A stretch of 64,000 bases of DNA from Mobula birostris (Eukaryota). Shown piece after piece: positions 5,440-34,349 of this stretch (positions are counted from its first letter, which is position 1; each line of letters begins with the position of its first letter). The translations under genes and the position numbers were made by a program. The stretch is from contig NC_092374.1 in NCBI RefSeq assembly GCF_030028105.1, positions 193,187,345-193,251,344 on the forward strand. The letters are read 5' to 3'. The notes beneath the pieces are model-generated. The model was not told where the DNA came from, ran no database searches, and worked only from the letters and a program-made list of their open reading frames with translations.

Positions 5440-5600
5440 CTTATTTCCAGAGCTTATTCCCCGAAACGAAGTATGGAAAATAACATGCTGTCTCAAAGCT
5501 GATGTGACAGGAGGCGGGACAGCTCCATCAAAGGCACCCAATCGGACAGCGAGAGCTGAAAAAGGCGGGGAACGGCTAGGCGATAAATTGCCCCGCGTCC
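5440..5600 (+). promoter_or_regulatory. IER3-A1 proximal promoter
   Basis: GC box GGAGGCGGGAC 5510-5520, CCAAT 5538-5542, GC box AAAGGCGGGG 5561-5570, TATA-like GATAAAT 5582-5588 about 100 bp upstream of the ATG, and TTCCCCGAA (GAS consensus) 5457-5465. The GC, CCAAT and TATA-like motifs keep the same order in the B2 promoter. Confidence 0.7.
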
Positions 5601-5681
5601 ACTGGAAACCTCAGAGCACAGATGTTTTTTTCTCTTTCTCCCGTTGTTGTCTAGTTACGCCCTCCTCAGATCCAAGAAGCC

Positions 5682-5891
5682 ATGTGTAGGGGCTGCCGCT
5701 ACCCCCAGCGAGCCTCCATGGTCCCCGGGCTCTCGCTGGAGTACAGGGACGACCCATTCCTGAAGAAGCAGAGGGGCATCGAGCCGGAGATCTTCACTTT
5801 CCAGCCAGTCGCACCAGTCAAGGACCGTGCGTCGGTCAGTGGCCGGAGCCCGGGAAAGCGTCGAGCTGTTAAAGTCCTCTATCCGGCGCAG
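5682..5891 (+). CDS. IER3: IER3/IEX-1-like paralog A, copy A1, exon 1 of 2 (joined protein 194 aa)
   Basis: MCR start in GAAGCCATG context. EPEIFTF and KRRAVKVLYP match the IER3 hallmark motifs (human GPEIFTFDP, RKRSRRVLYP). Ends CAG|GTAAGT, phase 0; intron 5892-6681. Confidence 0.9.
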
Positions 5892-6681
5892 GTAAGTGCC
5901 CAGCTCCTCAGAAGATGTTAAATTGATCTTAACCCCATCTCAATCAATGTCCAATGTGCACTGCCCTTTAAAACTGAGCCAGCCGCTTAGTACTTCAAGC
6001 AACCGGCTCCTAAGCCGATTGTAGGTGCTAAGCTGGCGCGCATCTGCACGTCAGGATCAAAACTAAAAGAGAACTCACTTGTAAGATTAGGTTGATTTTG
6101 TTATAAATAGATGTGGGCTGTTTGTATCGGCTGCGAGTGAGGGAGAGAGTGGAGGAGGGGAATGTCAGCATCCCCTGTTTCTATTTGATTCCCTGCTTCA
6201 AGACTCGCAGGAAATACCGATGTGGGAAGGGGCGGGGGTGTAGAGCAAAATAAACGGTAAACGTTCTCCCAAGTGTCCGCATCTGGTAGTGAGGGGGACA
6301 GACTTGGATGCAGACTTTCCTCAGTCACTTTATTCGGGCGATAGGGGTGGAGGGGAATGGCAGTTTGCAACTTGGAGCTTGGACCAGTTCTCCCTGGCAT
6401 TCTCCATCCGTCCCCCCCCCCCCCCGCCCCCACCCCCTTCCACACTGGCTCTGGTTATTTATCCCTGAACCAATGCCCCATTCAGGAGTTGTTTGTGGGA
6501 ACGGAAACGGGAGATCTGATGGTTACTGATCGTGTAAAACTTTGAGCGCAAATTTTGCCTGGTGCAATCGCGATTATGAGCAGAAGACGGAACATCCCCA
6601 GTTGACTGTAAAGAGCGTTGAGTTGTTGAGCCATGATAAAATGCAATAGCAATGTTGATCGTTTCTCTTATTCATCTGCAG

Positions 6682-7056
6682 GTCAGAAAGTATCTCCCAC
6701 CGGAAAAGAAGGACTGGGTAAAGAGGATGTTTTTCCTGTTCCTGGCCATTGTCCTGCTCCAGGTGTACGAAGCCACAGAGGGCAACGAGGAGCTCGCTGC
6801 TCCGGCGTCACCAGGCGACGTGACTCCGTTGTTGCCTACTAACAGATCCGCCCTGCTGCTGCCAAACCTGCCCATAACGGGGACTGAAACCAGCCCGGCC
6901 CTCGGGATCCCACGCGCCAGCCACGTCTGCGGATGGAACGGGTCGTCCCTCCACCAGGGCACTGCCGGGGATCTTCCCGATCAGCGGTGCGTCGTCTTGG
7001 ACCTCCGTGAGGTCAAGAGCGGGGACGGCCTGAACTCCGGTTTCCTTGCCCTGTGA
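6682..7056 (+). CDS. IER3: IER3/IEX-1-like paralog A, copy A1, exon 2 of 2
   Basis: Pyrimidine tract and CTGCAG acceptor ending at 6681. VRKYLPPEKKDWVKRMFFLFLAIVLLQV matches human [28 protein letters not shown] (hydrophobic anchor). NRS and NGS sequons; stop TGA 7054-7056. Confidence 0.9.
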   Translation, partial: VRKYLPPEKKDWVKRMFFLFLAIVLLQVYEATEGNEELAAPASPGDVTPLLPTNRSALLLPNLPITGTETSPALGIPRASHVCGWNGSSLHQGTAGDLPDQRCVVLDLREVKSGDGLNSGFLAL

Positions 7057-7348
7057 AGAGACGAGGCCGGCCTCAGTCGCTTGGGAAGTTTGACTCGGGC
7101 TTTCCTCGCCAAATAATATGAGCCACGGTGTCAGCTCGATCGCCAGGATGCGCCGCTAGCAACCTAGCGAGGGGAGGTAGAGGTGCCTTTCCAGGTCTTG
7201 TCAGGACTTGGGGCTTGAATGTGGGGGGCCACTCCCTGTTGGACTTTGCAGACGGAGGAGATAACTGTTAAACGTCGACCACGTTTACTTATTCGTCATT
7301 TGCAAGGCTACCCCGCAGCAATTCTGGGGCAGTAAATGCCACCTAACC

Positions 7349-7546
7349 TGTACATTAAACATTATATATTTATCTAATATTTTATTTATGTGCTTGCTGT
7401 GTAAGCAACATTTGTTTGACTGATGGAAATATAATGTATTTTGAAACACAATCTGTTCAGGTCTCGCTTTGAGAACTTGTTTGTAACTTCATTCACAAAA
7501 GTTTAAACCGTATTAACTGTATGTTCTATGAACACATGACAATAAA
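7349..7546 (+). promoter_or_regulatory. IER3-A1 3'UTR decay module: AREs, CDE stem-loop, poly(A) signal
   Basis: ATTTA 7368-7372 and TTATTTAT 7382-7389; TGTTC-TAT-GAACA triloop hairpin 7522-7534; AATAAA 7541-7546. Confidence 0.8.
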
Positions 7547-9344
7547 CTATTATTGGGGAATATCTTGTCTTATGGTTTTACTAATAGGCAATGAGCAACT
7601 TTTTAAGTAAGTTCAATGGTAATTGCAATGTTTGAAGCGTAACTTTGGACAGAACTGCAACATTTTAATATTCTGTCTTTGTGTTCCAATACTGTACAAC
7701 AGCAGGAGTAGGTTCATTATTTTCCACCTTAATTCTTCTGTAGATGACCCATAAGCATTGAAAACTGCCTGTGTCACTGCTATGCTTTAGTTGTGATCTA
7801 AAAAGTACCCATTTGTGAGTTACAAGCTGGAATCTAATTGAAGAATTTGAGTAGTTTTACATAGAATAATGGGTTAGAGTTCTTGAGTTGTAGAAGAACA
7901 GAACAGGCCTGTCAGTTCAAAGGTTCCATTTAATTTCAGAGAATGTATACAATAGACAACATGAAATTCTTACTCTCCACAGACATCCTCAAAACAGGGG
8001 GAAAAAAAACTCAGTGAATGACAGAAAAAAGCCCCCTGCCAGCCTCCCATGCACCAGCAGCATCAGCCATACCCCTTTCCACCCTCATTCTAATATAAAG
8101 CATCAGTATTCCCACCAATCACCATGCAAGCAACAGCAAAGGTCACGAGAGTACATCAAAAACTAACTGTTCACTCCAATGTTTTCGACATCCCACAGGC
8201 ACCGTCCCTCACTCACAAGGGACAGACAAATATCACTCTTTCCACAGGGAGAGAGCAGACATACAGGCATTGTTTCAATATCACAGTTCAAAGCATCAGT
8301 TTTTATTTTGAGTTCCCTGACTTGAGAATCGGCAGCAAACTCTCCATTGCCATTTTCAGAGAGTGATCAGATTTCTCCAACAGACACTCACACTGTCTTT
8401 GATGTTCCAGCTCCCACTATACTTCAGTTCATGACACTGGCAATAATTTGTCAGACTTCAGGCCAAACCCGGACATATTAAAACGTGGCCAATCTGCGAG
8501 TTCCAAGAGCAGCCATGCAGAACCGTAGTTTGAATGCCGCTGTAGATCAAAGATCCCAACAGGACCGCACAACACCATGAGAAAGCAAAATAGAGACATC
8601 ACAGTAGGAAGAATTTAACCACATTGTTGGGATGTCCAATATAAACAGCTCTACAATCAATTTAACCCTTCTGTCTTACATAGCCCACAACTCTCTGTTT
8701 TTCTTTCATCCCTCTGCCTATTTAAGAGTCTCCTAAATGTCCCTATTGTACCAACCTCAATCATCATCTTCAGCAGTGCCTTCCCGGCACCAACCACCCA
8801 CAAGCAAAAAAAAAACAACCTCAGGCATCAAATACCATCAAAGGACTTGGTAAATGTTGTTACTGATCTTGTCTCCATCAGGTCCAGCTCATTCCAGGTA
8901 ACCACTGCTCTTTGTGTGAAAAAATTATCACTCAGACTCTCTTTAACCCTGCGCTCTCTCATTTAAACCTATGCCATCTAGTTCTAGTCATCCCTATCAT
9001 CCAGTTGTAGTCATTCCTGTTATCATGGAAAATAGACACTGGCTGTCTACCTTAAAATGTATATAAGTTTATCCTGTCATCTCTCAGTGTCCTACACCCC
9101 AGGCTAAACAGACCCCCCTCCCATCCAATCTCTCCTCATAACTCAAGCCCTCCAATCTAACATACACGTGACTCTGTTCTACACTCTCTCCATTGTAACC
9201 CCATCTCTTCCTGCTGTGCAGTGACAGAACTGCACACAAGACTCCAAGTGCTGCTTTGTACAACTATTATAAACAATGCGTCATTTGTTGAAGCTGAGTG
9301 TAAGTGCTGCAGGCTGGCATCTGGTGGAATAGCAGATACATGGA

Positions 9345-10380
9345 GTGATCTCAAGCTGGTATGTAATACAGGGGTTCAGGGGTTTATATATGAACTAATT
9401 GATCCCTGGGAATGAGAACAGGCTGGAATACAATCCAAGGATTTAGGGCATTGATATATAAATTAATGAGTAACAAGGAATGAGTTACAGGCTCGGATCT
9501 AATACAGAGGTTCAGGCATTTTTACGTATAGAATAATGCACCCCTGGCAGGGAGTCACTGGTGTGGATTGGTCCAGGGTTTATCTCATAAATGGAATAAA
9601 AAATTGCCTGAGAGTGAATTACAGGCTGGAATTTAATCCAGGGGTTCAGAGGATACAATATGGCATAACGGACCGCCAGGAGTGAGTCACACTGGGGTCT
9701 GATCCACAGATTCAGGCATTGTATATATAGAATTATCTTCTCCAAAGATCATCACCTTGTTGTGGTAAAGAGGCTTGTGAGTTCCTGAGATCCAGAAAGT
9801 GATGCTGTCTGGAGATTAGCCATCTGGTGCTTAGCTCCTGGTAGGATCACCCATGGCGGTAAGGTCAAAGGGGAAGGTTCAGGCAGGGAGCAATCCAACC
9901 AAGACCTCACTGATGGAGCTGGCAGAAGATGATGACAGCGGTGAAGGGGCAGGAAGGCTGCAGCAATGAAGGATCCACAGCCGTCTTGCATTCCATGTCA
10001 CAGGTCCTGACTCCGATCTGTCAAAGACCATGTGGTTGCTGGCCGTGCTCATCCTCTCCATGTTAAACAAAGTCATGCATGGGTTTTCTCCTTTAATGGA
10101 ATCCATCCTAACATCTGGAACCCCTTTGGAGACCATTGTACTCAACTCAAGTGATCACGTTAGTACTATGTGTACAGATTCATGGACCCCCAAGAGTGAA
10201 TTACAGGCTGGAATATAATCCAGGGGTTCAGATCTTTTATATAAAGATATTGGATCCCTCAAGGTGAGATACGGGCTAGAATCTAATTTAAGGTTTTGTG
10301 AAGATTAATGAATAGCTTGGAGTAAGTAACAGGCTGAAACCATATTGAAAGGTTGGGATGGTTTATATATGTATGGATGT
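9345..10380 (+). repeat. Degenerate tandem repeat with a unit of about 65-70 bp (second copy at about 27630-28665)
   Basis: Recurrent GAGTGAGTTACAGGCTGGAATNTAATCCAGGGGTTCAG...TATATATAGAAT-like units starting near 9353, 9419, 9489, 9559, 9623, 9691, 10205, 10272 and 10331. Confidence 0.75.
9748..10140 (+). mobile_element. Short RTE 5'-region-like interspersed repeat inserted in the tandem array (relatives at about 28032-28424 and 46010-46380)
   Basis: Aligns with 46010-46380 (GATCATCA...GAGGCTYGTGAGT...GTGATGCTGTCTGGAG...CCTGGTAGGAYCACCCATGG). The RTE assignment is by resemblance. Confidence 0.5.
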
Positions 10381-10573
10381 CAGAGGGCATTGAGAAGGGC
10401 ATGACTGTCAGTGGCCAACCTGCAGTGGAGAAGTGAGTTCCAGGATATGAAAACCACCCCGACATAATTTGCTGTGAGAAGGGAGTGAAATTCAGTCACC
10501 GTCGACATGAACAGATGGGATAACATGAGAGAGTCCCATCCTGTCACAGAGTAGTTACAGTACCAATGTCAAT

Positions 10574-11275
10574 GGCCTTCCATATATTGGCGAGACTTGA
10601 CGCAGGCTGGGAGAATGTTTCGCTGAACACCTATGCTCTGTCTGCCAGAGAAAGCAGGATCTCCCAGTGGCCACACATTTTAATTCCATGTCCCATCCCC
10701 ATTTTGATATGTCTATCCATGGTCTCCTCTACTGTCGAGATGAAACCACACTCAGTCTGGAGGAACAAAACCTTATATTCTGTCTGGGTAGTCTCCAACC
10801 TGATGGCATGAATATTGACTTCTCTAACTTCCATTAATGCCCCACCTCCCCTTTGTACCCCAAACCCTTATTTATTTATTATTTTTTTCTCTCTTTTTTC
10901 TCCCTCTGTCCCTCTCACTGTAACTCCTTGCCCATCCTCTGGGCTCTCCTCCCCATTTCTTCCTCCCCAGGCTTCCCGTCCAATGATCCTCTCCCTTCTG
11001 CAGCCTCGTATCCCTTTTGCCAATCAACTGTCCAGCTCTTGGCTCTATCCCTCCCCCTCCTGTCTTCTCCTATCATTTCGGATCTCCCCCTCCCCTTCCC
11101 TCTTTCAAATCTCTTACTATCTCTTCTTTCAGTTAGTCCCGACAAAGGGTCTCGGCCCGAAACGTCGACTGTACCTCTTCCTAGAGATGCTGCCCAGCCT
11201 ACTGCATTCACCAGCATTTTTTTTATATGTGTATTGCTTGAATTTCCAGCATCTGCAGATTTACTCGGGTTTGCG
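10574..11275 (+). mobile_element. Penelope-like element 3' fragment (second copy 28858-29559)
   Basis: TATATTGGCGAGACT...CGCAGGCTGGGAGAATGTTTCGCTGAACAC encodes YIGET*RRLGECFAEH (GIY-YIG). Terminal region has a hammerhead-like motif at 11135-11170. Confidence 0.8.
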
Positions 11276-11401
11276 ATATTAAAATGCCGCCGGTCTGTCC
11301 AAAATTAGGCTTCAAAACATTGCAATTACCATGGAGCTTATTTTAAAAGTTCCTCATTGCCTATCAGTAAAACCATAAGGTAAGATATTCCCCAATAATA
11401 G

Positions 11402-11600
11402 TTTATTACCATGTGTTCACGGAACATACAGTTAATATGGTTTAAACTTTTATGAATGAAGTTACAAACAAGTTCTCAAAGCGAGTTTTGAACAGCTTGT
11501 GTTCCAAAATACTTTATATTTCCATCAATCAAACCAAAGTCGCTCGCACAGCAAGCACATAATAAAATATTAGATGAATAAATAATAGTTAATGTACAGG
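11402..11600 (-). promoter_or_regulatory. IER3-B1 3'UTR decay module: ARE, CDE stem-loop, poly(A) signal
   Basis: Minus strand: TTATTTATT nonamer 11585-11577; TGTTC-CGT-GAACA hairpin 11426-11414; AATAAA 11407-11402. Confidence 0.8.
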
Positions 11601-11738
11601 TTAGGTGGCATTTACTGCCCTAGGATTGCGTATGCTGTGGGGGGTAGTCTAGTAACTGACGAAGTCTCAGCGTGGTCGAAGTTGAACAGTTACTCCCTCT
11701 GTCTGTCTGCAAAGTCCTGCAGGGAGTGCCCCCCACGT

Positions 11739-12035
11739 TCAAACCCCAAGTCCTGGAAAGATTCCCCCCTCCATCTCCCCTCTGAGTTGCAAACGGTGCT
11801 TCTTGGCGATCACGCTGATCCCGAGGGCTGGGCTAGCGGTGGCGCCAGCCCCCGGCATGGGCAGGTTTGGCAGCAGCAGGGCGGATCTGTTGGTGGGCAA
11901 CAACGGTGCCGCCGCAACAGCGAGCTCCTCGTTGCCCTCCGTGGCTTCGTACACCTGGAGCAGGACAATGGACAGGAACAGGAAAAACATCCTCTTTACC
12001 CAGTCTTTCTTTTTCGGTGGGAGATACTTTCTGAC
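11739..12035 (-). CDS. IER3: IER3/IEX-1-like paralog B, copy B1, exon 2 of 2 (joined protein 168 aa)
   Basis: CTGCAG acceptor at 12041-12036; VRKYLPPKKKDWVKRMFFLFLSIVLLQV; divergent 25-aa tail; stop TGA. Confidence 0.85.
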   Translation of the reverse strand, partial: VRKYLPPKKKDWVKRMFFLFLSIVLLQVYEATEGNEELAVAAAPLLPTNRSALLLPNLPMPGAGATASPALGISVIAKKHRLQLRGEMEGGIFPGLGV

Positions 12036-13222
12036 CTGCAGATAAATAAGAGAAACGATCAACATTGAGCCATGATAAATACAATAGCAATAATTCAAAA
12101 CTCTTTACAGTCAACGGAAGATGTTCTGACTTCTGCTCATAATCGCTAAGTTTGCGCGCAGAAAATTTCCCACAAACAGCAATCATCAGATCCGCACGCC
12201 TCAATGGGATATTGGTTCAGCGGTAAGTAACCCGAACAGCGGCGGGGAAGGGGGTGGGGCGGTAGCATGGAGAATTGGCCCAAGCTGCAAACTGCCACCC
12301 CTCCCACCTTTCCCTCGAGCAACGTGCTTGAGGAAGGTCTGCACAATTAGGCCACTCGGCCCCCTCCAATCCCGGAGACTGACACTAGGAAGGACCTTCC
12401 CCGTTCACATCTGAGCGAGTCTTGGAGCAACGTGACCAAACAGAAATAAGAGGGGCTGACAATCCTCTCCTGCAGACTCCCCTTCACGCCCTCTCACTCC
12501 CAGCCAATACAAACGGTCCAAATCAATCTACCTTAACTTGCAAGTGGCTCCTCTTTTAGTTTTGATCCTGACATGCAGATGCACCCCTGCTTAGCGCTTA
12601 CAATCTGCTTGGGAGCTCGCCGGATAAGATGGGGTCGGGTGCTTGAAGTACTCAGCGGCTGGCTCCGATTTAAAAGGGCAGCGCGCATTGCTCATCGATG
12701 GAGATGGGTTTAAGATCATTCAATGTCTTCTGCACTCCGCTTCTCTTCTTCTTTGCATACCATCCAGACAGATTGTGCCATTCCCAAGTGCATGAATGCA
12801 TTTAGGTATGACCTGCTTGGATGGCGAGCAGACTAAAGCTTTTCACTGCATCCCGTACGTGGCTACAATAAACCTATCTGCCTTCATTGGGTCCACAAGA
12901 CATGGGTGCAGAATTAGGCCATTCGTCCCAGCTCTGCTTCGCCACTTTATCATGGCTGATTTTTTAACCCCCCCTCGACGCCATTCGTGGGCTTTACCCC
13001 CGTAATTTTTGACGCCCTTGCGAATCAAGTCTATTGATCCCCGCTTTAAATATACCCAAGGAATTGTCTGTGGCGGTGAGCTCTACAGCTATACCACCCC
13101 TGGCTGAAGAAATTGCCCATTCACTTTAATTATCTGCAGCGTGGCATTAACAACTAATACGATGAGGTACGTACACGACGGGCTGAATGGCCTCTTGCGT
13201 AAGGGGAGATGGAGGCACTTAC

Positions 13223-13432
13223 CTGCGCCGGATAGAGGACTTTCACAGCTCGGCGCCTTCCCGGGCTCCGGCCACTGACCGACGTACTGCTCTTGACCGG
13301 TGCGACGGTCTCGAAGGTGAAGATCTCCGGCTCGATGCTCCTCTGCTTCTTCAGGAATGGGTCGCCCCTATATTCCAGCGAGAGCCCGGGGACCATGGAG
13401 GCTCGCTGGGGGTAGTGGCAGCCCCTACACAT
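13223..13432 (-). CDS. IER3: IER3/IEX-1-like paralog B, copy B1, exon 1 of 2 (ORF intact, promoter deleted; possible pseudogene)
   Basis: MCRGCHYP...EPEIFTF...RRRAVKVLYPAQ|GTAAGT; intron 12036-13222. Only 18 bp of native upstream sequence remain (13433-13450). Confidence 0.85.
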
Positions 13433-13450
13433 GGCTTCTTGGAGGATGTA

Positions 13451-14090
13451 CCTAGAAATCTGCTGGGGTCATCTATCGTGTCTGGTTCTCTCAATGCACC
13501 CGCCTCTACGTTGGAGAGACCCATCGTGAATTGAGGGATCACTTCGTTGAGCAGCTCTGCTCCACCATCCACAAGCAGAACTTCCCAGTGGCCAAACATT
13601 TTAATTTCCATTCCCATTCCCGTTCCAACATGTCTGTCCATGGCCTCCTCTTTTGCCAAGATCCGGCCACCTCAGGGTGGAGGAGCAACATATTATTTTT
13701 ATGTCTGAGTAGCCTCCAACCTGATGGCATGAATATCAATTTCTCCTTCCAGTAAAAAAAATGACCCCCCCCCCATCGCTTCATCTCTGACCTTTTACCT
13801 CTTCTCATCTGCCTATCATTTCCCTCTGGGTCTCTTCTTCCTCCCCTTTCTCCTATGGACCACCCTCTTCTCCTATCAGATTCCTTCTTCCCTAGTCCTT
13901 GACTTTTCCCAACAACGGCTTCACCTTTCACCTTCCAGCTAGCCTCCTTTTCCTCTCCCCACCTTCTTATTCTGGCTGCTTCCCCCTTCCTTTTCAGTCC
14001 TGAAGAACAGTCTTGGCCCGAAATGTCAACTATATATTAATCTCCATAGATGCTGCCTGACCTGCTGAGTTCCTCCATCATTTTGTGTTG
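13451..14090 (+). mobile_element. Penelope-like 3' fragment, 5'-truncated at the deletion junction
   Basis: RLYVGETHRELRDHFVEQL GIY-YIG-like reading; nearly identical to 33710-34349; CTGAAGA...GAAA motif at 14000-14023. Confidence 0.75.
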
Positions 14091-14829
14091 TTAAATTCCT
14101 TGCTGATTAGATTTGATGCAAACATGCTGCATTTCATCGTATGTATTAATGTACAGTAACAATAGAGCTTATCTTTAAAATCATTTTTCCACAGCCTCTG
14201 GTAGATAGTTACAAGCATTCACATCCCTTTAAGAGATGAAGTTTCTCCTCCTTGAATCACCTTATCGAGTGCACAGTTGGGGCATTGACTACCCAGCTCA
14301 CTTATTCAAACATATAGGCAAGCATAAGGAAAGTTCGATCAATAACAATTTAAATAGCAATTTAGACCCTGATCTAGCAGCTTGTGGGGTGCTTTATTCT
14401 ATGTGGAGGCAACTGAGAGAAGGTTTATTTGGACTGGTACCTGGAATGGATGTGCTGGTTATCCTGTGAGGAAATGTTGACAGGGTAGTCTTGTATTCAC
14501 TTGAACAGCAATGTTATTCTTAACCTGTGCTGCCTGCTCTGGGAGTACATGATAGGACAGTGTGAGGTGTGTTTTTGTCTATCTTGAAGCTGTCCAATAC
14601 TGTCTTCTTAACATTCAGACCCAGTAACCAGACTGATTACAATCGAGTCCAGACCTGTGTCGCTGAAATTAATTGCTTTGCTTGAGATTCCTTCTGACTG
14701 TGGCTGTGCAAAATCAGCTTCAGTCAAGCAGCAACACACACAAAATGCTGAAGGAAATCAACAGGTCAGGCAGCATCTATGGAGGGAAGTGAACAGTCAA
14801 CATTTCAAGCTGACAACCTTCATCAGTTT

Positions 14830-15340
14830 GGCTAGATTGGAAGTATTGCATTCAGTTCTGGTTGACCCATTATAGGAAGGATGTGAGGCGTTTGGAGAGG
14901 GTGTAGAAAACTTAATACCAGAATGCTGCCTGCTATAAAGGGAAGGTGACAACTGGGTCATTTTCTCTGAAGTGATGAAGGCTGAGGGGAGATTTGAAAG
15001 AGTTTCATAAAATTATGAGAGGCATAGTTAGAGTAGACAGACATTATCTTTTTTTCCCAGGGCTGAAATGAGGACATGCATTTAAGGTGAGGGGGGTAAG
15101 TTCAAAGCAGATGTGCGGGGCAAGTGTTTTGCATGGCGAGTGATGTGTGACAGGAATGCACTGACAGGGATGGTGCTAGAGGCAAATACAATAGTGGGGT
15201 ACAAGAGATTGTTAGATAGGGACACAGATGTGTTGGAAATTGAATGATGGGGACATCTTGTAGTCAGAAGGGATTAGTTTAGTTGGGCGATTCATTGCAA
15301 AGTTAGTTCAGCACAACATTGTGTTCCTGTGCTCTACTGA
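14830..15340 (+). mobile_element. CR1 LINE 3' fragment, degenerate (second copy about 35090-35600)
   Basis: Homologous to the CR1 C-terminal region at 59980-60330 (LEYC.QFW.PHYRKDV..LERV motif). Confidence 0.7.
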
Positions 15341-15494
15341 TCTTGGAGTGTATACTCATGCACCTCCCTGAAGTATCATCGGGATTCAATTAGTTGTCCA
15401 ATAGACATGTCCAGACTCTGAGAGACGATCATAAATACAGAAGATTCTGGAGATGCTGGAAATCCAGGGCAACACCCAAACGCTGGAGGAAATC

Positions 15495-16730
15495 AGCAGG
15501 CCAGGCAGCATCCACGGAGGGGAATAAACAGTCAACGTTTTGAGCCAAGACCCTCCTGATGACCCTCCCTCTGAGGGAACTCTGCTGTGTGATTTACTCT
15601 GTGTGACTTTTGTCCTTCTTGACCCTCTAATGTTAAAAGTATGGTCTTGCCCCTTATGGGCAAGGATTTGATCTTGTTTCCAGGACCTCTGGACAGTGGA
15701 GCTCAGTGAAACCCAGGTTTTTGAAATCTCCAGCCAGACCCTGATACGTAGTGCTGCACTTTCGATCCTTCATTGAGATCATCTCCCCTGGTCTGCTATA
15801 TCAGGAGCATTGCACACATGGTGCCTTTAGCATTGTCAAGGACCCCTCCCATCCATCCAACAATCTCTTTGACCCCCTAGCATCAGGCCAGACCATTAGG
15901 ACAAGGACTTTTCTGATAGAAACCAGCTTCTTCCCCTAGGCCATGGAACTAATGAACTCCTTACCACCACCCAGGTCTCATCATGCAGGAATCACCAGTA
16001 GCATTATGCTATTCACATTTTAACGTGTCATAAATACTCCTTATGGTAAAGGTCAATCTTCAGGAATATATGTTATTATTTGTTAATTTATTTGTGGTAA
16101 TATTACTATATGTATTGTGTGTGAGTATGTGTACTGTGTTGTACACCTCGGTCTGGAGGAATGTTGTTTCATTGGCAGTACATGTGTACATGGTTGAATG
16201 GCCTCTACCTACTAACCCACCCCACTATTACTTTATAATTTCCTGTCAGAGTCACCTTATGTACAGACACTCATGTACCTAGTGTCACTTCATGGACAAA
16301 TAGTCAATCGATGTTTATAAGCTATCTTATGTATTTATATTTATTGTGCTTCTTAATTTATTATGTTCTATTTGTGCTGCATCAAATTCAGAGTAACAAT
16401 TATTTAACTTTTCTTTACGCTTGTGTACTGGAAATGACACTCAGCAGATGAGGCAGTATCTATGGAGCGGAATAAACAGTTGTCATTTTGGGCCAAGACC
16501 CCTCCAATGACCCTCCCTATGAGGGAACACTGCCATGTAATTTACTCTGTAGGTCTCTTGTCCTCCTTAATCCTCTAATGTTGGAAATATAGTCTTGCCT
16601 TTTACCCCCGCTAGGATTTGATTTTGTTCCCAGGACCTCAGTACAGCGGAGCTCTGTTTTCAAAATCTTCAGCCAGGCCCTGATACGTGGTACTGAACAG
16701 TCACATCCTTCACTGAGATCCTTTCCCATG
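15495..16730 (+). repeat. Old diverged direct repeat pair of about 290 bp (15495-15790 and 16443-16730; duplicated again in unit 2)
   Basis: Shared CCAAGACCC..TGACCCTCCCT.TGAGGGAAC, CCTCTAATGTT, CCAGGACCTC, CCCTGATACGT and TCCTTCA.TGAGATC blocks. Confidence 0.75.
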
Positions 16731-23966: not shown

Positions 23967-24176
23967 ATGTGTAGGAGCTGCCGCTACCCCCAGCGAGCCT
24001 CCATGGTCCCCGGGCTCTCGCTGGAGTACAGGGACGACCCGTTCCTGAAGAAGCAGAGGGGCATCGAGCCGGAGATCTTCACTTTCCAGCCAGTCGCACC
24101 AGTCAAGGACCGTGCGTCGGTCAGTGGCCGGAGCCCGGGAAAGCGTCGAGCTGTTAAAGTCCTCTATCCGGCGCAG
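23967..24176 (+). CDS. IER3: IER3/IEX-1-like paralog A, copy A2, exon 1 of 2 (ORF intact, promoter absent; possible pseudogene)
   Basis: Same protein as A1 except G4S; CAG|GTAAGT donor. Upstream of 23874 the sequence is a Penelope fragment rather than the A promoter. Confidence 0.85.
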
Positions 24177-24966
24177 GTAAGTGCCCAGTTCCTCAGAAGA
24201 TGTTAAATTGATCTTAACCCCATCTCAATCAATGTCCAATGTGCACTGCCCTTTAAAACTGAGCCAGCCGCTTAGTACTTCAAGCAACCGGCTCCTAAGC
24301 CGATTGTAGGTGCTAAGCTGGCGCGCATCTGCACGTCAGGATCAAAACTAAAAGAGAACTCACTTGTAAGATTAGGTTGATTTTGTTATAAATAGATGTG
24401 GGCTGTTTGTATCGGCTGCGAGTGAGGGAGAGTGTGGAGGAGGGGAATGTCAGCATCCCCTGTTTCTATTTGATTCCCTGCTTCAAGACTCGCAGGAAAT
24501 ACCGATGTGGGAAGGGGCGGGGGTGTAGAGCAAAATAAACGGTAAACGTTCTCCCAAGTGTCCGCATCTGGTAGTGAGGGGGACAGACTTGGATGCAGAC
24601 TTTCCTCAGTCACTTTATTCGGGCGATAGGGGTGGAGGGGAATGGCAGTTTGCAACTTGGAGCTTGGACCAGTTCTCCCTGGCATTCTCCATCCGTCCCC
24701 CCCCCCCCCCGCCCCCACCCCCTTCCACACTGGCTCTGGTTATTTATCCCTGAACCAATGCCCCATTCAGGAGTTGTTTGTGGGAACGGAAACGGGAGAT
24801 CTGATGGTTACTGATCGTGTAAAACTTTGAGCGCAAATTTTGCCTGGTGCAATCGCGATTATGAGCAGAAGACGGAACATCCCCAGTTGACTGTAAAGAG
24901 CGTTGAGTTGTTGAGCCATGATAAAATGCAATAGCAATGTTGATCGTTTCTCTTATTCATCTGCAG

Positions 24967-25341
24967 GTCAGAAAGTATCTCCCACCGGAAAAGAAGGACT
25001 GGGTAAAGAGGATGTTTTTCCTGTTCCTGGCCATTGTCCTGCTCCAGGTGTACGAAGCCACAGAGGGCAACGAGGAGCTCGCTGCTCCGGCGTCACCAGG
25101 CGACGTGACTCCGTTGTTGCCTACTAACAGATCCGCCCTGCTGCTGCCAAACCTGCCCATAACGGGGACTGAAACCAGCCCGGCCCTCGGGATCCCACGC
25201 GCCAGCCACGTCTGCGGATGGAACGGGTCGTCCCTCCACCAGGGCACTGCCGGGGATCTTCCCGATCAGCGGTGCGTCGTCTTGGACCTCCGTGAGGTCA
25301 AGAGCGGGGACGGCCTGAACTCCGGTTTCCTTGCCCTGTGA
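24967..25341 (+). CDS. IER3: IER3/IEX-1-like paralog A, copy A2, exon 2 of 2
   Basis: CTGCAG acceptor 24961-24966; translation identical to A1 exon 2. Confidence 0.85.
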   Translation, partial: VRKYLPPEKKDWVKRMFFLFLAIVLLQVYEATEGNEELAAPASPGDVTPLLPTNRSALLLPNLPITGTETSPALGIPRASHVCGWNGSSLHQGTAGDLPDQRCVVLDLREVKSGDGLNSGFLAL

Positions 25342-25806
25342 AGAGACGAGGCCGGCCTCAGTCGCTTGGGAAGTTTGACTCGGGCTTTCCTCGCCAAATA
25401 ATATGAGCCACGGTGTCAGCTCGATCGCCAGGATGCGCCGCTAGCAACCTAGCGAGGGGAGGTAGAGGTGCCTTTCCAGGTCTTGTCAGGACTTGGGGCT
25501 TGAATGTGGGGGGCCACTCCCTGTTGGACTTTGCAGACGGAGGAGATAACTGTTAAACGTCGACCACGTTTACTTATTCGTCATTTGCAAGGCTACCCCG
25601 CAGCAATTCTGGGGCAGTAAATGCCACCTAACCTGTACATTAAACATTATATATTTATCTAATATTTTATTTATGTGCTTGCTGTGTAAGCAACATTTGT
25701 TTGACTGATGGAAATATAATGTATTTTGAAACACAATCTGTTCAGGTCTCGCTTTGAGAACTTGTTTGTAACTTCATTCACAAAAGTTTAAACCGTATTA
25801 ACTGTA

Positions 25807-25831
25807 TGTTCTATGAACACATGACAATAAA
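25807..25831 (+). promoter_or_regulatory. IER3-A2 CDE stem-loop and poly(A) signal
   Basis: TGTTC-TAT-GAACA 25807-25819; AATAAA 25826-25831. Confidence 0.75.
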
Positions 25832-28800
25832 CTATTATTGGGGAATATCTTGTCTTATGGTTTTACTAATAGGCAATGAGCAACTTTTTAAGTAAGTTCA
25901 ATGGTAATTGCAATGTTTGAAGCGTAACTTTGGACAGAACTGCAACATTTTAATATTCTGTCTTTGTGTTCCAATACTGTACAACAGCAGGAGTAGGTTC
26001 ATTATTTTCCACCTTAATTCTTCTGTAGATGACCCATAAGCATTGAAAACTGCCTGTGTCACTGCTATGCTTTAGTTGTGATCTAAAAAGTACCCATTTG
26101 TGAGTTACAAGCTGGAATCTAATTGAAGAATTTGAGTAGTTTTACATAGAATAATGGGTTAGAGTTCTTGAGTTGTAGAAGAACAGAACAGGCCTGTCAG
26201 TTCAAAGGTTCCATTTAATTTCAGAGAATGTATACAATAGACAACATGAAATTCTTACTCTCCACAGACATCCTCAAAACAGGGGGAAAAAAAACTCAGT
26301 GAATGACAGAAAAAAGCCCCCTGCCAGCCTCCCATGCACCAGCAGCATCAGCCATACCCCTTTCCACCCTCATTCTAATATAAAGCATCAGTATTCCCAC
26401 CAATCACCATGCAAGCAACAGCAAAGGTCACGAGAGTACATCAAAAACTAACTGTTCACTCCAATGTTTTCGACATCCCACAGGCACCGTCCCTCACTCA
26501 CAAGGGACAGACAAATATCACTCTTTCCACAGGGAGAGAGCAGACATACAGGCATTGTTTCAATATCACAGTTCAAAGCATCAGTTTTTATTTTGAGTTC
26601 CCTGACTTGAGAATCGGCAGCAAACTCTCCATTGCCATTTTCAGAGAGTGATCAGATTTCTCCAACAGACACTCACACTGTCTTTGATGTTCCAGCTCCC
26701 ACTATACTTCAGTTCATGACACTGGCAATAATTTGTCAGACTTCAGGCCAAACCCGGACATATTAAAACGTGGCCAATCTGCGAGTTCCAAGAGCAGCCA
26801 TGCAGAACCGTAGTTTGAATGCCGCTGTAGATCAAAGATCCCAACAGGACCGCACAACACCATGAGAAAGCAAAATAGAGACATCACAGTAGGAAGAATT
26901 TAACCACATTGTTGGGATGTCCAATATAAACAGCTCTACAATCAATTTAACCCTTCCGTCTTACATAGCCCACAACTCTCTGTTTTTCTTTCATCCCTCT
27001 GCCTATTTAAGAGTCTCCTAAATGTCCCTATTGTACCAACCTCAATCATCATCTTCAGCAGTGCCTTCCCGGCACCAACCACCCACAAGCAAAAAAAAAC
27101 AACCTCAGGCATCAAATACCATCAAAGGACTTGGTAAATGTTGTTACTGATCTTGTCTCCATCAGGTCCAGCTCATTCCAGGTAACCACTGCTCTTTGTG
27201 TGAAAAAATTATCACTCAGACTCTCTTTAACCCTGCGCTCTCTCATTTAAACCTATGCCATCTAGTTCTAGTCATCCCTATCATCCAGTTGTAGTCATTC
27301 CTGTTATCATGGAAAATAGACACTGGCTGTCTACCCTAAAATGTATATAAGTTTATCCTGTCATCTCTCAGTGTCCTACACCCCAGGCTAAACAGACCCC
27401 CCTCCCATCCAATCTCTCCTCATAACTCAAGCCCTCCAATCTAACATACACGTGACTCTGTTCTACACTCTCTCCATTGTAACCCCATCTCTTCCTGCTG
27501 TGCAGTGACAGAACTGCACACAAGACTCCAAGTGCTGCTTTGTACAACTATTATAAACAATGCGTCATTTGTTGAAGCTGAGTGTAAGTGCTGCAGGCTG
27601 GCATCTGGTGGAATAGCAGATACATGGAGTGATCTCAGGCTGGTATGTAATACAGGGGTTCAGGGGTTTATATATGAACTAATTGATCCCTGGGAATGAG
27701 AACAGGCTGGAATACAATCCAAGGATTTAGGGCATTGATATATAAATTAATGAGTAACAAGGAATGAGTTACAGGCTCGGATCTAATACAGAGGTTCAGG
27801 CATTTTTACGTATAGAATAATGCACCCCTGGCAGGGAGTCACTGGTGTGGATTGGTCCAGGGTTTATCTCATAAATGGAATAAAAAATTGCCTGAGAGTG
27901 AATTACAGGCTGGAATTTAATCCAGGGGTTCAGAGGATACAATATGGCATAACGGACCGCCAGGAGTGAGTCACACTGGGGTCTGATCCACAGATTCAGG
28001 CATTGTATATATAGAATTATCTTCTCCAAAGATCATCACCTTGTTGTGGTAAAGAGGCTTGTGAGTTCCTGAGATCCAGAAAGTGATGCTGTCTGGAGAT
28101 TAGCCATCTGGTGCTTAGCTCCTGGTAGGATCACCCATGGCGGTAAGGTCAAAGGGGAAGGTTCAGGCAGGGAGCAATCCAACCAAGACCTCACTGATGG
28201 AGCTGGCAGAAGATGATGACAGCGGTGAAGGGGCAGGAAGGCTGCAGCAATGAAGGATCCACAGCCGTCTTGCATTCCATGTCACAGGTCCTGACTCCGA
28301 TCTGTCAAAGACCATGTGGTTGCTGGCCGTGCTCATCCTCTCCATGTTAAACAAAGTCATGCATGGGTTTTCTCCTTTAATGGAATCCATCCTAACATCT
28401 GGAACCCCTTTGGAGACCATTGTACTCAACTCAAGTGATCACGTTAGTACTATGTGTACAGATTCATGGACCCCCAAGAGTGAATTACAGGCTGGAATAT
28501 AATCCAGGGGTTCAGATCTTTTATATAAAGATATTGGATCCCTCAAGGTGAGATACGGGCTAGAATCTAATTTAAGGTTTTGTGAAGATTAATGAATAGC
28601 TTGGAGTAAGTAACAGGCTGAAACCATATTGAAAGGTTGGGATGGTTTATATATGTATGGATGTCAGAGGGCATTGAGAAGGGCATGACTGTCAGTGGCC
28701 AACCTGCAGTGGAGAAGTGAGTTCCAGGATATGAAAACCACCCCGACATAATTTGCTGTGAGAAGGGAGTGAAATTCAGTCACCGTCGACATGAACAGAT

Positions 28801-29685
28801 GGGATAACATGAGAGAGTCCCATCCTGTCACAGAGTAGTTACAGTACCAATGTCAATGGCCTTCCATATATTGGCGAGACTTGACGCAGGCTGGGAGAAT
28901 GTTTCGCTGAACACCTATGCTCTGTCTGCCAGAGAAAGCAGGATCTCCCAGTGGCCACACATTTTAATTCCATGTCCCATCCCCATTTTGATATGTCTAT
29001 CCATGGTCTCCTCTACTGTCGAGATGAAACCACACTCAGTCTGGAGGAACAAAACCTTATATTCTGTCTGGGTAGTCTCCAACCTGATGGCATGAATATT
29101 GACTTCTCTAACTTCCATTAATGCCCCACCTCCCCTTTGTACCCCAAACCCTTATTTATTTATTATTTTTTTCTCTCTTTTTTCTCCCTCTGTCCCTCTC
29201 ACTGTAACTCCTTGCCCATCCTCTGGGCTCTCCTCCCCATTTCTTCCTCCCCAGGCTTCCCGTCCAATGATCCTCTCCCTTCTGCAGCCTCGTATCCCTT
29301 TTGCCAATCAACTGTCCAGCTCTTGGCTCTATCCCTCCCCCTCCTGTCTTCTCCTATCATTTCGGATCTCCCCCTCCCCTTCCCTCTTTCAAATCTCTTA
29401 CTATCTCTTCTTTCAGTTAGTCCCGACAAAGGGTCTCGGCCCGAAACGTCGACTGTACCTCTTCCTAGAGATGCTGCCCAGCCTACTGCATTCACCAGCA
29501 TTTTTTTTATATGTGTATTGCTTGAATTTCCAGCATCTGCAGATTTACTCGGGTTTGCGATATTAAAATGCCGCCGGTCTGTCCAAAATTAGGCTTCAAA
29601 ACATTGCAATTACCATGGAGCTTATTTTAAAAGTTCCTCATTGCCTATCAGTAAAACCATAAGGTAAGATATTCCCCAATAATAG

Positions 29686-29710
29686 TTTATTACCATGTGT
29701 TCACGGAACA
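29686..29710 (-). promoter_or_regulatory. IER3-B2 CDE stem-loop and poly(A) signal
   Basis: Minus strand TGTTC-CGT-GAACA 29710-29698; AATAAA 29691-29686. Confidence 0.8.
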
Positions 29711-30022
29711 TACAGTTAATATGGTTTAAACTTTTATGAATGAAGTTACAAACAAGTTCTCAAAGCGAGTTTTGAACAGCTTGTGTTCCAAAATACTTTA
29801 TATTTCCATCAATCAAACCAAAGTCGCTCGCACAGCAAGCACATAATAAAATATTAGATGAATAAATAATAGTTAATGTACAGGTTAGGTGGCATTTACT
29901 GCCCTAGGATTGCGTATGCTGTGGGGGGTAGTCTAGTAACTGACGAAGTCTCAGCGTGGTCGAAGTTGAACAGTTACTCCCTCTGTCTGTCTGCAAAGTC
30001 CTGCAGGGAGTGCCCCCCACGT

Positions 30023-30319
30023 TCAAACCCCAAGTCCTGGAAAGATTCCCCCCTCCATCTCCCCTCTGAGTTGCAAACGGTGCTTCTTGGCGATCACGCT
30101 GATCCCGAGGGCTGGGCTAGCGGTGGCGCCAGCCCCCGGCATGGGCAGGTTTGGCAGCAGCAGGGCGGATCTGTTGGTGGGCAACAACGGTGCCGCCGCA
30201 ACAGCGAGCTCCTCGTTGCCCTCCGTGGCTTCGTACACCTGGAGCAGGACAATGGACAGGAACAGGAAAAACATCCTCTTTACCCAGTCTTTCTTTTTCG
30301 GTGGGAGATACTTTCTGAC
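30023..30319 (-). CDS. IER3: IER3/IEX-1-like paralog B, copy B2, exon 2 of 2 (joined protein 168 aa)
   Basis: Acceptor 30325-30320; translation identical to B1 exon 2. Confidence 0.88.
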   Translation of the reverse strand, partial: VRKYLPPKKKDWVKRMFFLFLSIVLLQVYEATEGNEELAVAAAPLLPTNRSALLLPNLPMPGAGATASPALGISVIAKKHRLQLRGEMEGGIFPGLGV

Positions 30320-31506
30320 CTGCAGATAAATAAGAGAAACGATCAACATTGAGCCATGATAAATACAATAGCAATAATTCAAAACTCTTTACAGTCAACG
30401 GAAGATGTTCTGACTTCTGCTCATAATCGCTAAGTTTGCGCGCAGAAAATTTCCCACAAACAGCAATCATCAGATCCGCACGCCTCAATGGGATATTGGT
30501 TCAGCGGTAAGTAACCCGAACAGCGGCGGGGAAGGGGGTGGGGCGGTAGCATGGAGAATTGGCCCAAGCTGCAAACTGCCACCCCTCCCACCTTTCCCTC
30601 GAGCAACGTGCTTGAGGAAGGTCTGCACAATTAGGCCACTCGGCCCCCTCCAATCCCGGAGACTGACACTAGGAAGGACCTTCCCCGTTCACATCTGAGC
30701 GAGTCTTGGAGCAACGTGACCAAACAGAAATAAGAGGGGCTGACAATCCTCTCCTGCAGACTCCCCTTCACGCCCTCTCACTCCCAGCCAATACAAACGG
30801 TCCAAATCAATCTACTTTAACTTGCAAGTGGCTCCTCTTTTAGTTTTGATCCTGACATGCAGATGCACCCCTGCTTAGCGCTTACAATCTGCTTGGGAGC
30901 TCGCCGGATAAGATGGGGTCGGGTGCTTGAAGTACTCAGCGGCTGGCTCCGATTTAAAAGGGCAGCGCGCATTGCTCATCGATGGAGATGGGTTTAAGAT
31001 CATTCAATGTCTTCTGCACTCCGCTTCTCTTCTTCTTTGCATACCATCCAGACAGATTGTGCCATTCCCAAGTGCATGAATGCATTTAGGTATGACCTGC
31101 TTGGATGGCGAGCAGACTAAAGCTTTTCACTGCATCCCGTACGTGGCTACAATAAACCTATCTGCCTTCATTGGGTCCACAAGACATGGGTGCAGAATTA
31201 GGCCATTCGTCCCAGCTCTGCTTCGCCACTTTATCATGGCTGATTTTTTAACCCCCCCTCGACGCCATTCGTGGGCTTTACCCCCGTAATTTTTGACGCC
31301 CTTGCGAATCAAGTCTATTGAACCCCGCTTTAAATATACCCAAGGACTTGTCTGTGGCGGTGCGCTCTACAGCTATACCACCCCTGGCTGAAGAAATTGC
31401 CCATTCACTTTAATTATCTGCAGCGTGGCATTAACAGCTAATACGATGAGGTACGTACACGACGGGCTGAATGGCCTCTTGCGTAAGGGGAGATGGGGGC
31501 ACTTAC

Positions 31507-31716
31507 CTGCGCCGGATAGAGGACTTTCACAGCTCGGCGCCTTCCCGGGCTCTGGCCACTGACCGACGTACTGCTCTTGACCGGTGCGACGGTCTCGAAG
31601 GTGAAGATCTCCGGCTCGATGCTCCTCTGCTTCTTCAGGAATGGGTCGCCCCTATATTCCAGCGAGAGCCCGGGGACCATGGAGGCTCGCTGGGGGTAGT
31701 GGCAGCTCCTACACAT
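31507..31716 (-). CDS. IER3: IER3/IEX-1-like paralog B, copy B2, exon 1 of 2 (promoter retained)
   Basis: ATG 31716-31714; MCRSCHYP...EPEIFTF...VLYPAQ|GTAAGT (donor 31506-31501). The longer N-terminus in the ORF track (from 31842) reads through promoter DNA. Confidence 0.88.
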
Positions 31717-31794
31717 GGCTTCTTGGAGGATGTAACTAGGCAGCAACCTGCAAAGGTGAAAAAACCATCTGTGTTCTGAGGTTTTCCAGAGACG

Positions 31795-32243
31795 CGGGAG
31801 CAATTTAATGCGCAGCCGGTCCCCGCCTTTCTCAGGTCTCACTGACCGATTGGATGCACTTGATCCCGCCTCCTGTCACACCAGCTTTGAGACAGCACGT
31901 TAGATCCCCTTTTTATTTCGGAAAATCTCTGGAGAGCCTAGAGCAAACCAGTGCAAGTTACAGCCTGGCTGTTTTGACAGTAAGCAGCTTACTTTTGTCG
32001 ACATTGTAGATACAGTCTTACCGAAAGAATTTGAGCCGTGAATCGATTCCAGCTCGCACTCTTCCAGTCCCTAAACTTAGCCCCAACACGAAGTCTGCAG
32101 CTGCGTTCTTCAATCTTTTAAGATATGTCCCATTGCTTAGAAAGGACATGAACCGACGTAGGTACCGGGGGGAGTAAGAGAACACTCGGCCTCCGTCCCA
32201 TCTGCCTTCTCATTACAGCAGTCATAAACACAATAGATTCTGC
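31795..32243 (-). promoter_or_regulatory. IER3-B2 proximal promoter, homologous to the A1 promoter (about 5175-5600)
   Basis: Minus strand: GGAGGCGGG 31873-31865, CCAAT 31853-31849, GGCGGGG 31827-31821, TATA-like ATTAAAT 31809-31803. Confidence 0.7.
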
Positions 32244-32373
32244 NNNNNNNNNNNNNNNNNNNNNNNNNNNNNNNNNNNNNNNNNNNNNNNNNNNNNNNNN
32301 NNNNNNNNNNNNNNNNNNNNNNNNNNNNNNNNNNNNNNNNNNNNNNNNNNNNNNNNNNNNNNNNNNNNNNNNN
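32244..32373. other. Assembly gap (130 N)
   Basis: Run of N in the sequence. Confidence 1.
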
Positions 32374-32799
32374 CCATTCCATTCTAGCTCCCCTCTTAAC
32401 CCTTCTGCTCTCCTCACTTGCCCTTCACTTTACCCTGGTGCCCCTCCTCCATTCCTTTCTCCCATAGTCCACAGTCCTCTCCTATCCGATTCTTTCTTCT
32501 CCCTCCCAGCTTCTTATTTCATCCCCCTCTCCTACTCAACTACTTACACCCCTCCCCCCATATTCTGATCCAGCCTGATTTGCCGAGTTTCTCCATCATT
32601 TTGTATGTGTTACTCTGGAGGAACTGAGCATGCCAGGCAGCATCTGTGGAGGGGAATAAACAGATGATGGTCCCAGTTGAGACTCTTTATCAGGATAACG
32701 ACATTCACCCTGCTGTTCTAACTTTCATCTTTCCCCTACTTATCAAGGTTTTATCTGTCCTTGTTTTAAGATACGCAATGGCCCTTTGAGAAAGAGGGT

Positions 32800-34349
32800 A
32801 CAAACCCAACATCCTCCCAATGAAAGGTGAGCTCATCAGTTTCAGCCACTTCGCCTCTAACTTCCACCCTGCCCATAAATTCACTTGGTCCATCTCTGAC
32901 ATCTCCCTCCTCTTTCTCGATCTCTCTATTTTCATCTCTGGAGACAAACTGCCAACAGACATCTTTTATAAACCTATTGATTCCCAGAGTTGTGTCGATC
33001 TATACCTCTTCCCACCTTATCTCCTCTAAAGATGCTATTCTCTTTCCTCAGTCCCTCTGCCTTTGCCGTATCTGTTCTCAGGACATGATTTTCCATTCCA
33101 GGACATCAGAGAACAGGGTTTCCCTCCCTCCAATATTGATGCTAGGGCAACCGGTGGTGTAGTGGTATCTGTGATGGGGCGAGAGGTCTCAGGTTCAAAT
33201 CTGGCTGGCTCCTTGTACGCTTTCCATCTGTGCTGGGTTGAGCGTCAAGCTGGAAACACATAAAAAAACAGATAAAAATGCTAAAGAAATAGCAAGAGTG
33301 CTGGCCAATGCTCCATGAGACATGACCAGGAACAACAACTATTGATGCTGCCCTCCCCCGCATCACCTCCATTCCCCGAACATCTGCGCTCACTCCATCT
33401 TCCCACAGTCTTAATAGTGATAGAGTTCCTCTTGTCCTTACCTCCCACCCCATCAGCTTCTGCATCCAACATATCCTCCACAACTTCTGCCATCTCCAAA
33501 GGGATCCCACCACTAAACATATCTTGACCTCCCTCCCCTCCACTTTTCATAGGGTTTGTTCCACGATTTCCTTGTCCATTCGTCCCTCCTCACTAATCTC
33601 CCCGCTGGCACAACCCTGCAGACAGCTCAAGTGCTACACCTGCTCATGCACCTCCTCCCTTATCTCTATTTAGGGCCCCAAACAGTCCTTCCAGGTGAGG
33701 AAACACTCACCTAGAAATCTGCTGGGGTCATCTATCATGTCTGGTTCTCTCAATGCACCCGCCTCTACGTTGGAGAGACCCATCGTGAATTGAGGGATCA
33801 CTTCGTTGAGCAGCTCTGCTCCACCATCCACAAGCAGAACTTCCCAGTGGCCAAACATTTTAATTTCCATTCCCATTCCCGTTTCAACATGTCTGTCCAT
33901 GGCCTCCTCTTTTGCCAAGATCCGGCCACCTCAGGGTGGAGGAGCAACATATTATTTTTATGTCTGAGTAGCCTCCAACCTGATGGCATGAATATCAATT
34001 TCTCCTTCCAGTAAAAAAAATGACCCCCCCCCATCGCTTCATCTCTGACCTTTTACCTCTTCTCATCTGCCTATCATTTCCCTCTGGGTCTCTTCTTCCT
34101 CCCCTTTCTCCTATGGACCACCCTCTTCTCCTATCAGATTCCTTCTTCCCTAGTCCTTGACTTTTCCCAACAACGGCTTCACCTTTCACCTTCCAGCTAG
34201 CCTCCTTTTCCTCTCCCCACCTTCTTATTCTGGCTGCTTCCCCCTTCCTTTTCAGTCCTGAAGAACAGTCTTGGCCCGAAATGTCAACTATATATTAATC
34301 TCCATAGATGCTGCCTGACCTGCTGAGTTCCTCCATCATTTTGTGTTGT
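32800..34349 (+). mobile_element. Penelope-like element (RT C-terminus, GIY-YIG region, terminal repeat), degenerate
   Basis: SNFHPAHKFT...FLDLSI...TDIFYKP motif typical of PLE reverse transcriptase (ORF 32820-33029), followed by a Cys motif and the YVGET region. Confidence 0.85.
33144..33339 (+). mobile_element. tRNA-derived SINE nested in the Penelope element
   Basis: A box TGGTGTAGTGG 33155-33165, B box GGTTCAAATCT 33192-33202, (AAC)3 tail, and a 10-bp TSD TATTGATGCT at 33134-33143 and 33340-33349. Confidence 0.85.

Follow-up and report, generated by a model that had tools for sequence, protein, structure and literature searches.

The window analysed here, 64,000 nucleotides from the manta Mobula birostris (RefSeq assembly GCF_030028105.1, contig NC_092374.1, positions 193,187,345 to 193,251,344 of the forward strand), contains four genes related to IER3 (IEX-1) and two native IER3-type promoters. 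The explanation that is moderately favoured as a whole combines an old inverted duplication, the source of a tail-to-tail gene pair (A and B), with a recent single event that would have copied the bodies of both genes without their promoters. The layout, as assembled and unverified by reads, is that of a linked interspersed duplication (DUP-NML-DUP), a known class of rearrangement.

Self-BLAST of the window yields two direct repeats, X (5589-13455 and 23874-31739, 99.78% identity), which is 7.9 kb long and includes both gene bodies, and Z (13450-23878 and 33709-44135, 99.71%), which is 10.4 kb long and consists of repeats. Each is present twice, in the assembled order U-X1-Z1-X2-Y-Z2-R, with the A promoter in the single-copy segment U and the B promoter in the single-copy segment Y. 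The first copy of X, lying between both start sites with the A and B bodies tail to tail, spans 5589-13450 and is followed by Z1 (13451-23873); X2 (23874-31734) has 16 differences from X1, and Z2 (33709-44135) has 29 differences from Z1, with the native repeat continuing from 44136. The duplicated block really reaches 44135, past the end at 33710 assigned to it in an earlier note on this DNA. Y (31735-33708, minus strand) holds the B promoter (31735-32243) and the sole run of N in the window, a 130-N gap (32244-32373) that adjoins a tract of 76–82% pyrimidine; pyrimidine-rich tracts are known for long-read dropout. From U via the X1-Z1 junction (J1), Z1, the Z1-X2 junction (J2) and X2 into Y, there is no gap. 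The 1975-bp deletion described in the earlier note is correctly located at J1, but its size includes the 130 N and is hence an estimate.

All four two-exon IER3-like open reading frames (ORFs) announced in that note are indeed intact, stop-free and interrupted by GT-AG phase-0 introns. The plus-strand genes A1 (exons 5682-5891 and 6682-7056; XP_072113464.1) and A2 (23967-24176 and 24967-25341; Ser4; XP_072113466.1) encode 194 amino acids (aa), and the minus-strand genes B1 (13432-13223 and 12035-11739; XP_072113465.1) and B2 (31716-31507 and 30319-30023; Ser4 and Gln55; XP_072113467.1) encode 168 aa; the four match four consecutive M. birostris RefSeq accessions, XP_072113464 to XP_072113467. 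RefSeq names all four window proteins, along with the ray and shark relatives, IEX-1/IER3-like, and exon 2 of A is identical to an M. birostris RefSeq protein named IEX-1-like. A protein similarity search gave 17 matches among 510 candidates, with an IEX-1-like name for 11 among the matches listed, and the top three Atlas clusters are all named IEX-1 (scores of 0.81–0.82, at lead level). A Pfam scan of the IER3-like proteins returned no family match; no Pfam family covers IER3. Like the IER3/IEX-1 family, the window genes have two exons, a GC/CCAAT/TATA-like promoter and AU-rich motifs in the 3' untranslated region (UTR). Their intron follows codon 70, which may be the position in human IER3 too. 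They are unlike the family in forming an inverted A/B pair in stingrays and mantas and in the C-terminus of B, which comes from former 3' UTR. Human IER3 is a gene of the MHC region; in the window, no other host genes were recognised among the 74 window ORFs of at least 110 aa, and 10 non-IER3 frames compared with Pfam produced transposon-type or sub-threshold matches only.

In the single-copy A promoter (5175-5588, plus strand), a GAS-like site is accompanied by two GC boxes, a CCAAT box and a TATA-like box (5582-5588), and the set of two GC boxes, CCAAT and TATA-like box occurs upstream of A1 and B2 only, with a footprint shared by A and B at 78% in the distal and 87.5% in the proximal part. 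As the earlier note had it, A2 is devoid of TATA, CCAAT and GC boxes and B1 is promoterless: all that remains 5' of B1 is an 18-bp leader, the GC/CCAAT/TATA-like set is absent, and one GC-box hexamer at -72 comes from repeat DNA. Both native promoters have a hexamer resembling the initiator consensus 31-32 bases past the TATA-like box, which would put the start sites of A1 and B2 at 5613 and 31777, respectively; B1 retains no such start site. A2 retains 93 bp with a putative initiator (23898) and the leader, along with the CpG-rich body. Ahead of these, repeat DNA supplies a GAS-like site (23800-23808) and an NF-kB consensus (23810-23819), together 23800-23819 on the plus strand, or about -98 to -79 from the putative initiator. 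The kB consensus is found 19 times in the window against 18.7 expected, and given this chance-level frequency, the A2 site is rejected as a sign of function and kept as a lead only. Neither native promoter contains a perfect kB consensus. The A promoter, unlike that of B, has a GAS (STAT) consensus (5457-5465), and A and B may for this reason be differently regulated. J1 leaves a weak acceptor-like AG about 20 bases 5' of the B1 ATG (13433-13470, minus strand), through which a read-through transcript could in principle be spliced into B1. A bacterial promoter scan, a method that does not apply to this locus, found nothing. Human IER3 is a stress-inducible immediate-early gene (PMC11976266); for this gene, an NF-kB element and SP1 binding are described, and rapid IER3 induction proceeds via NF-kB and Sp1 sites (PMC2241879).

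The junctions lie where the earlier note placed them. J2, at 23874, corresponds to A position 5589, the first base past the TATA-like heptamer (5582-5588), and joins the end of Z back to the start of X, about -22 from the inferred A start; a 5-bp microhomology (23874-23878) blurs the break to 5589-5593, or about -24 to -20. J1, at 13450/13451, spares 18 bp in front of the B1 ATG and falls at about +44 relative to the inferred start of B; it joins the end of X to the start of Z, with Y skipped and with a 1-bp microhomology plus a 5/6 near-match that qualifies as microhomeology in the sense of PMC6902434. Among about 200,000 random position pairs, 5-bp microhomology occurs at 0.6%. Both ends of Z are in remnants of GIY-YIG-type repeats, at non-homologous positions (33709 aligns to 44469, and 44135 to 33389), which rules out long-homology recombination. 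Because the junctions are gap-free and J2 carries the 5-bp microhomology, a real event is favoured, and it is likely that both junctions are genuine.

A direct DUP-NML-DUP at PLP1 has been explained by two template switches (PMC6902434). The manta locus is similar to the PLP1 cases in that two direct duplicated segments flank a single-copy segment, with two linked junctions, microhomology or microhomeology instead of long homology at the joins, and three possible arrangements (PMC6902434; PMC12616954). It differs in the size of the block (about 20 kb, compared with the much larger clinical rearrangements), in coming from a ray assembly, in having copies that are already 0.25% apart and in that the start sites of two paralogous genes delimit the duplicated segment. 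The three arrangements are indistinguishable by copy number and junction sequence (PMC12616954), and the reciprocal distribution of promoters holds for the assembled order only. With both junctions real and the order U-X-Y-Z-X-Z-R, A1 and B1 would keep both promoters, the second pair would have none and there would be no reciprocity. Apart from this equivalence, the break of the assembly within Y speaks for such an order; arguing against it are the uninterrupted sequence between U and the start of Y, both junctions included, and the length of X (7.9 kb), which fits a long-read span, so that this order has very little chance of being the true one.

Under the favoured explanation, the recent event in the manta lineage would be one of replication or repair, with two microhomology-guided template switches: after U-X was copied, a forward jump over Y into Z, copying of Z and a jump back to the start of X would give U-X-Z-X-Y-Z-R. 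By an alternative route, an 18.3-kb X+Z circle that integrated through recombination in X would yield the same product, and the homologue perhaps served as template for the second unit. Neither promoter, the one in U or that in Y, would ever have been copied, making the rearrangement near dosage-neutral from birth, with compensation unneeded; the spare ORFs would be young, hence intact, and probably drifting to pseudogenes. The interpretation of the locus in the earlier note, reciprocal promoter loss, is not supported by this geometry if taken as two compensating events: both promoters are in never-duplicated DNA, one two-switch event suffices and the 'reciprocal loss' follows simply because the promoters were never copied. 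A two-step history, namely, tandem duplication of X-Y-Z followed by a favoured deletion of the B1 promoter that restored dosage, with the silent copies kept as donors, leads to an identical end product. Such a history gains from the harmful effect of IER3 overexpression in mice (PMC6404175) and from the derived Ser4 in A2 and B2, consistent with an exchange in which a silent copy took part. It is nevertheless decidedly improbable: it invokes two events where one suffices, the intact ORFs need no selection, B appears loosely constrained (C-terminal deletion, Ser4 and Gln55 in B2, no B found in M. hypostoma), and both ends of X fall between the TATA box and the ATG, with a rough post hoc chance of 0.002.

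The two X-plus-Z units differ at 45 of the 18,290 sites (16 in X and 29 in Z; an additional aligner difference at 13451 is the junction and was dropped). The differences consist of 40 substitutions (32 transitions, with 11 CpG transitions, and 8 transversions) and five one-base indels at or beside homopolymer runs. Sequencing error as their source is rejected by the transition and CpG pattern, and the pattern marks both units as genuine sequences, be they alleles or young paralogues. The differences cluster towards the junctions: 10 of the 45 are within 500 bp of J1 (p 1e-4) and 6 within 500 bp of the J2 ends (p 0.035), with 2.5 expected in each case, and within 1 kb the numbers are 11 and 12, respectively, against 4.9 expected. 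Suppressed conversion at the duplication edges, allelic origin or polishing could explain this clustering; at J2, it is unexplained by an artificial join and counts for a real event. Error-prone synthesis after the switches was rejected as the cause, given that the derived alleles at 13269/31553 and 13423/31707 are in X2, at an end with the native join. Most of the Z differences (22/29) fall within 20308-23756 (aligned with 40566-44013), a 3.4-kb AT-rich L1-derived block, which resembles a tract that escaped conversion or a deep haplotype block.

The same layout would result from a false duplication: one homologue of the animal would lack 2 kb with the B promoter (or J1 would be on one homologue and J2 on the other), and the assembly would have placed the two haplotypes one after the other. 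Several observations weigh against a real duplication. The divergence is patchy and allele-like: the differences are overdispersed (index of 3.7, 0/20,000 simulations) and Ser4 is common to A2 and B2 in unit 2, both of which are expected of two alleles, and 0.25% is within the range of vertebrate heterozygosity, 0.22–0.95% (Table 1 of PMC9516828), in the more heterozygous of the mantas (PMC11789554). The clustering is strongest at J1, the 500-bp signal at J2 is marginal and the 1-kb signal there is inside the 3.4-kb block, which is dense throughout; furthermore, the start sites at 5613 and 31777 are placed by motif spacing only. A contig gap lies inside the block, and the other three stingray and devil-ray species found have at most two copies. 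The usual signs of a false duplication are a gap between the copies, halved read depth and discordant reads; a join can also be hidden by wrong gap filling. Of the false duplication that remains in newer long-read assemblies, 61–92% lies within a single scaffold (PMC9516828). The manta locus is similar to the heterotype false duplications of that study in its adjacent near-identical copies, allele-like divergence, '-like' annotation and nearby gap, but its gap is in the single-copy Y rather than between the copies, and its joins are contiguous, with microhomology. Moreover, J2 is gap-free, has a microhomology with a 0.6% chance for an arbitrary join and lands on the A core promoter, and the differences are enriched at the J2 ends too. 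A false duplication is accordingly somewhat unlikely, with a chance that is still appreciable; if it is the truth, the real finding would be a B-promoter-null allele.

The older layer of the locus is the A/B pair itself. A and B are inverted paralogues, tail to tail, with homology that extends over an upstream repeat remnant, the promoter, the intron and the 3' UTR (78–88% over the aligned non-coding bases). The remnant is a decayed GIY-YIG-type repeat, at 3879-4931 upstream of A and in inverted orientation at B (32820-34076), with 82–83% identity over aligned bases. The copy at 3879-4931 has a feature score of 0.94 to GIY-YIG clusters, in which the family is on 22–29% of the members, and its Pfam scan was empty; presumably, it is a Penelope-like element. 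These remnants mark the limits of the old inverted duplication, which would have given rise to the pair now seen in stingrays and mantas, with later exchange of sequence between A and B. Over 108 codons, the nonsynonymous divergence between A and B (pN) is 0.048 and the synonymous divergence (pS) is 0.119, so both were under purifying selection. The pS (0.12) is lower than the divergence of the flanks (about 0.17–0.22), and lineage-specific residues are common to A and B, at position 7 (mantas vs stingrays) and at positions 104 and 108 (Hemitrygon), which points to gene conversion between A and B in species with two copies only. That inverted paralogues can evolve in concert through gene conversion is established; the likeness here consists in the shared lineage-specific residues and the low pS, and the difference in that the other species are judged on proteins only. 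A near-perfect A/B tract starts 11 bases 5' of the ATG, 7 bases from J1. In the exon-1 tree, A and B split at 93/92, with labels for the other species that derive from exon-1 residues and are partly circular; in the exon-2 tree, which is mostly unresolved, they do not split. In manta B, deletions removed the old stop and a new C-terminal tail is read from the former 3' UTR. The B intron has an insertion of about 455 bp compared with A (12735-13215 and 31019-31499). This insertion weakly resembles repeats at 2506-2676 and 51937-51969, and 5 of the 16 X differences fall in it, including three transversions in a 42-bp stretch.

Among the other cartilaginous fishes, two IER3-like proteins are annotated for Hypanus sabinus, two for Hemitrygon akajei and, for M. 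hypostoma, an A-type protein only, with no B among its proteins of 106–340 aa or 38–123 aa (in the annotation, not the genome). In ten further clusters that were looked up, two proteins are found in Mustelus and Hemiscyllium and one gene's worth in the other species. The two proteins of Mustelus asterias (P0014 and P0024) are 188 aa long with 6 differences, Hemiscyllium ocellatum likewise has two annotated IER3-like proteins (P0020 and P0021), and close relatives of both have one; IER3 may have been duplicated repeatedly within elasmobranchs. A whale shark protein (P0019) that is named torsin-4A-like in the source is grouped with IER3 by the alignment. Literature searches for IER3 in sharks and cartilaginous fish, in which subscription journals are thinly covered, found no paper on the locus or on the A/B pair.

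IER3 is single-copy in human. The earlier note took this state as the baseline, which is wrong for the group, given that two stingray genera, Mustelus and Hemiscyllium carry two annotated copies. Its proposal that dosage stayed at one A plus one B is borne out as far as the assembly has four coding copies and two native promoters; that expressed dosage follows suit is probable. The tight dosage control on which it relied is doubtful for B, where the original C-terminus is lost, B2 has two derived changes at conserved residues and no M. hypostoma protein was found. B1 is most likely silent, and A2 would be either silent or weakly expressed from the retained initiator; its silence is uncertain because the putative initiator is kept and a kB/GAS consensus pair was gained. 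If both are silent, near dosage neutrality may have let the event persist. CpG decay in the promoterless copies was looked for and none is seen: the counts are alike with and without a promoter (80/81 and 85/85) and are uninformative.

The suggestion that silent copies act as conversion donors finds no support. Only 0.21 disabling hits are expected in both spare copies (P of none about 0.81), so the intact ORFs do not show a donor role, intactness being expected under neutrality; homogenisation of A and B is moreover already present in two-copy genera. The derived Gly4Ser change is common to A2 and B2 (14 of the 17 non-window rows have Gly, the remainder being two gaps and one coelacanth) and lies in a 27-bp stretch without a single A/B mismatch; the best reading is a short conversion in unit 2, which may have preceded or followed the duplication. 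A further change in B2 is Gln55, against Arg in 15 of the 17 non-window rows and gaps in two. Repair by silent donors is not suggested, since B2 is the more derived copy though presumed expressed. The single-nucleotide differences put forward as diagnostic (5691/23976 for A and 13423/31707 for B) are real but make poor lone markers, being an identical change at the corresponding codon of A and B, within the 27 identical bases. An excess of derived alleles in unit 2 is not claimed: the coding differences are derived in 4/4 cases and the ratio is about 8 to 3 over the 11 substitutions (of 40) for which the window holds another copy as reference, several of which are weakly aligned.

Elsewhere in the window, a near full-length young L1 (53030-57760, minus strand) has ORF1-, endonuclease- and reverse transcriptase-type frames, the latter two in different frames near 55032-55099. 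Within a CR1-like element, a second, 99.5% identical L1 copy begins at 62694; it is without the 3' part and runs off the window (62694-64000). The identity suggests recent L1 activity. The corresponding 1.3-kb repeat (53761/62694) was rejected as a second segmental duplicate, being L1 sequence. Two adjacent open frames at the window start (5-739, plus strand; 129 and 114 aa) have no confident Pfam match and are probably a mobile-element remnant.

The locus represents, as assembled, a small lineage-specific duplication of a known class, and its four genes are already annotated. Two of these RefSeq models are promoterless, and a read check is due before a manta IER3 expansion is counted. The positions of the X ends are not explained by dosage because dosage selection would accept breaks anywhere from the promoter to the stop. 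Two candidate causes are breaks at start or pause sites of immediate-early genes and fold-back pairing of the A/B inverted repeat. TOP2B and pause-site breaks are described at the EGR1 and FOS start sites in somatic cells (PMC10721843); the manta case is similar in involving an immediate-early pair, with X ends at about -22 and +44 of the inferred starts, and different in being one locus, and the available part of that source mentions neither IER3 nor inherited rearrangement. It is conceivable, although unlikely, that the rearrangement is the inherited footprint of transcription-linked breaks that struck the start sites of a co-induced immediate-early pair together, at the A core promoter and the B pause region, with the promoterless pair copied as one unit and A2 left behind a repeat-derived GAS/NF-kB pair, possibly newly inducible. 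If so, dosage-neutral duplicates with complete ORFs would be able to arise through start-site fragility, and if the coincidence of breakpoints and start sites is mechanistic, somatic breaks at immediate-early promoters would be linked to inherited gene duplicates.

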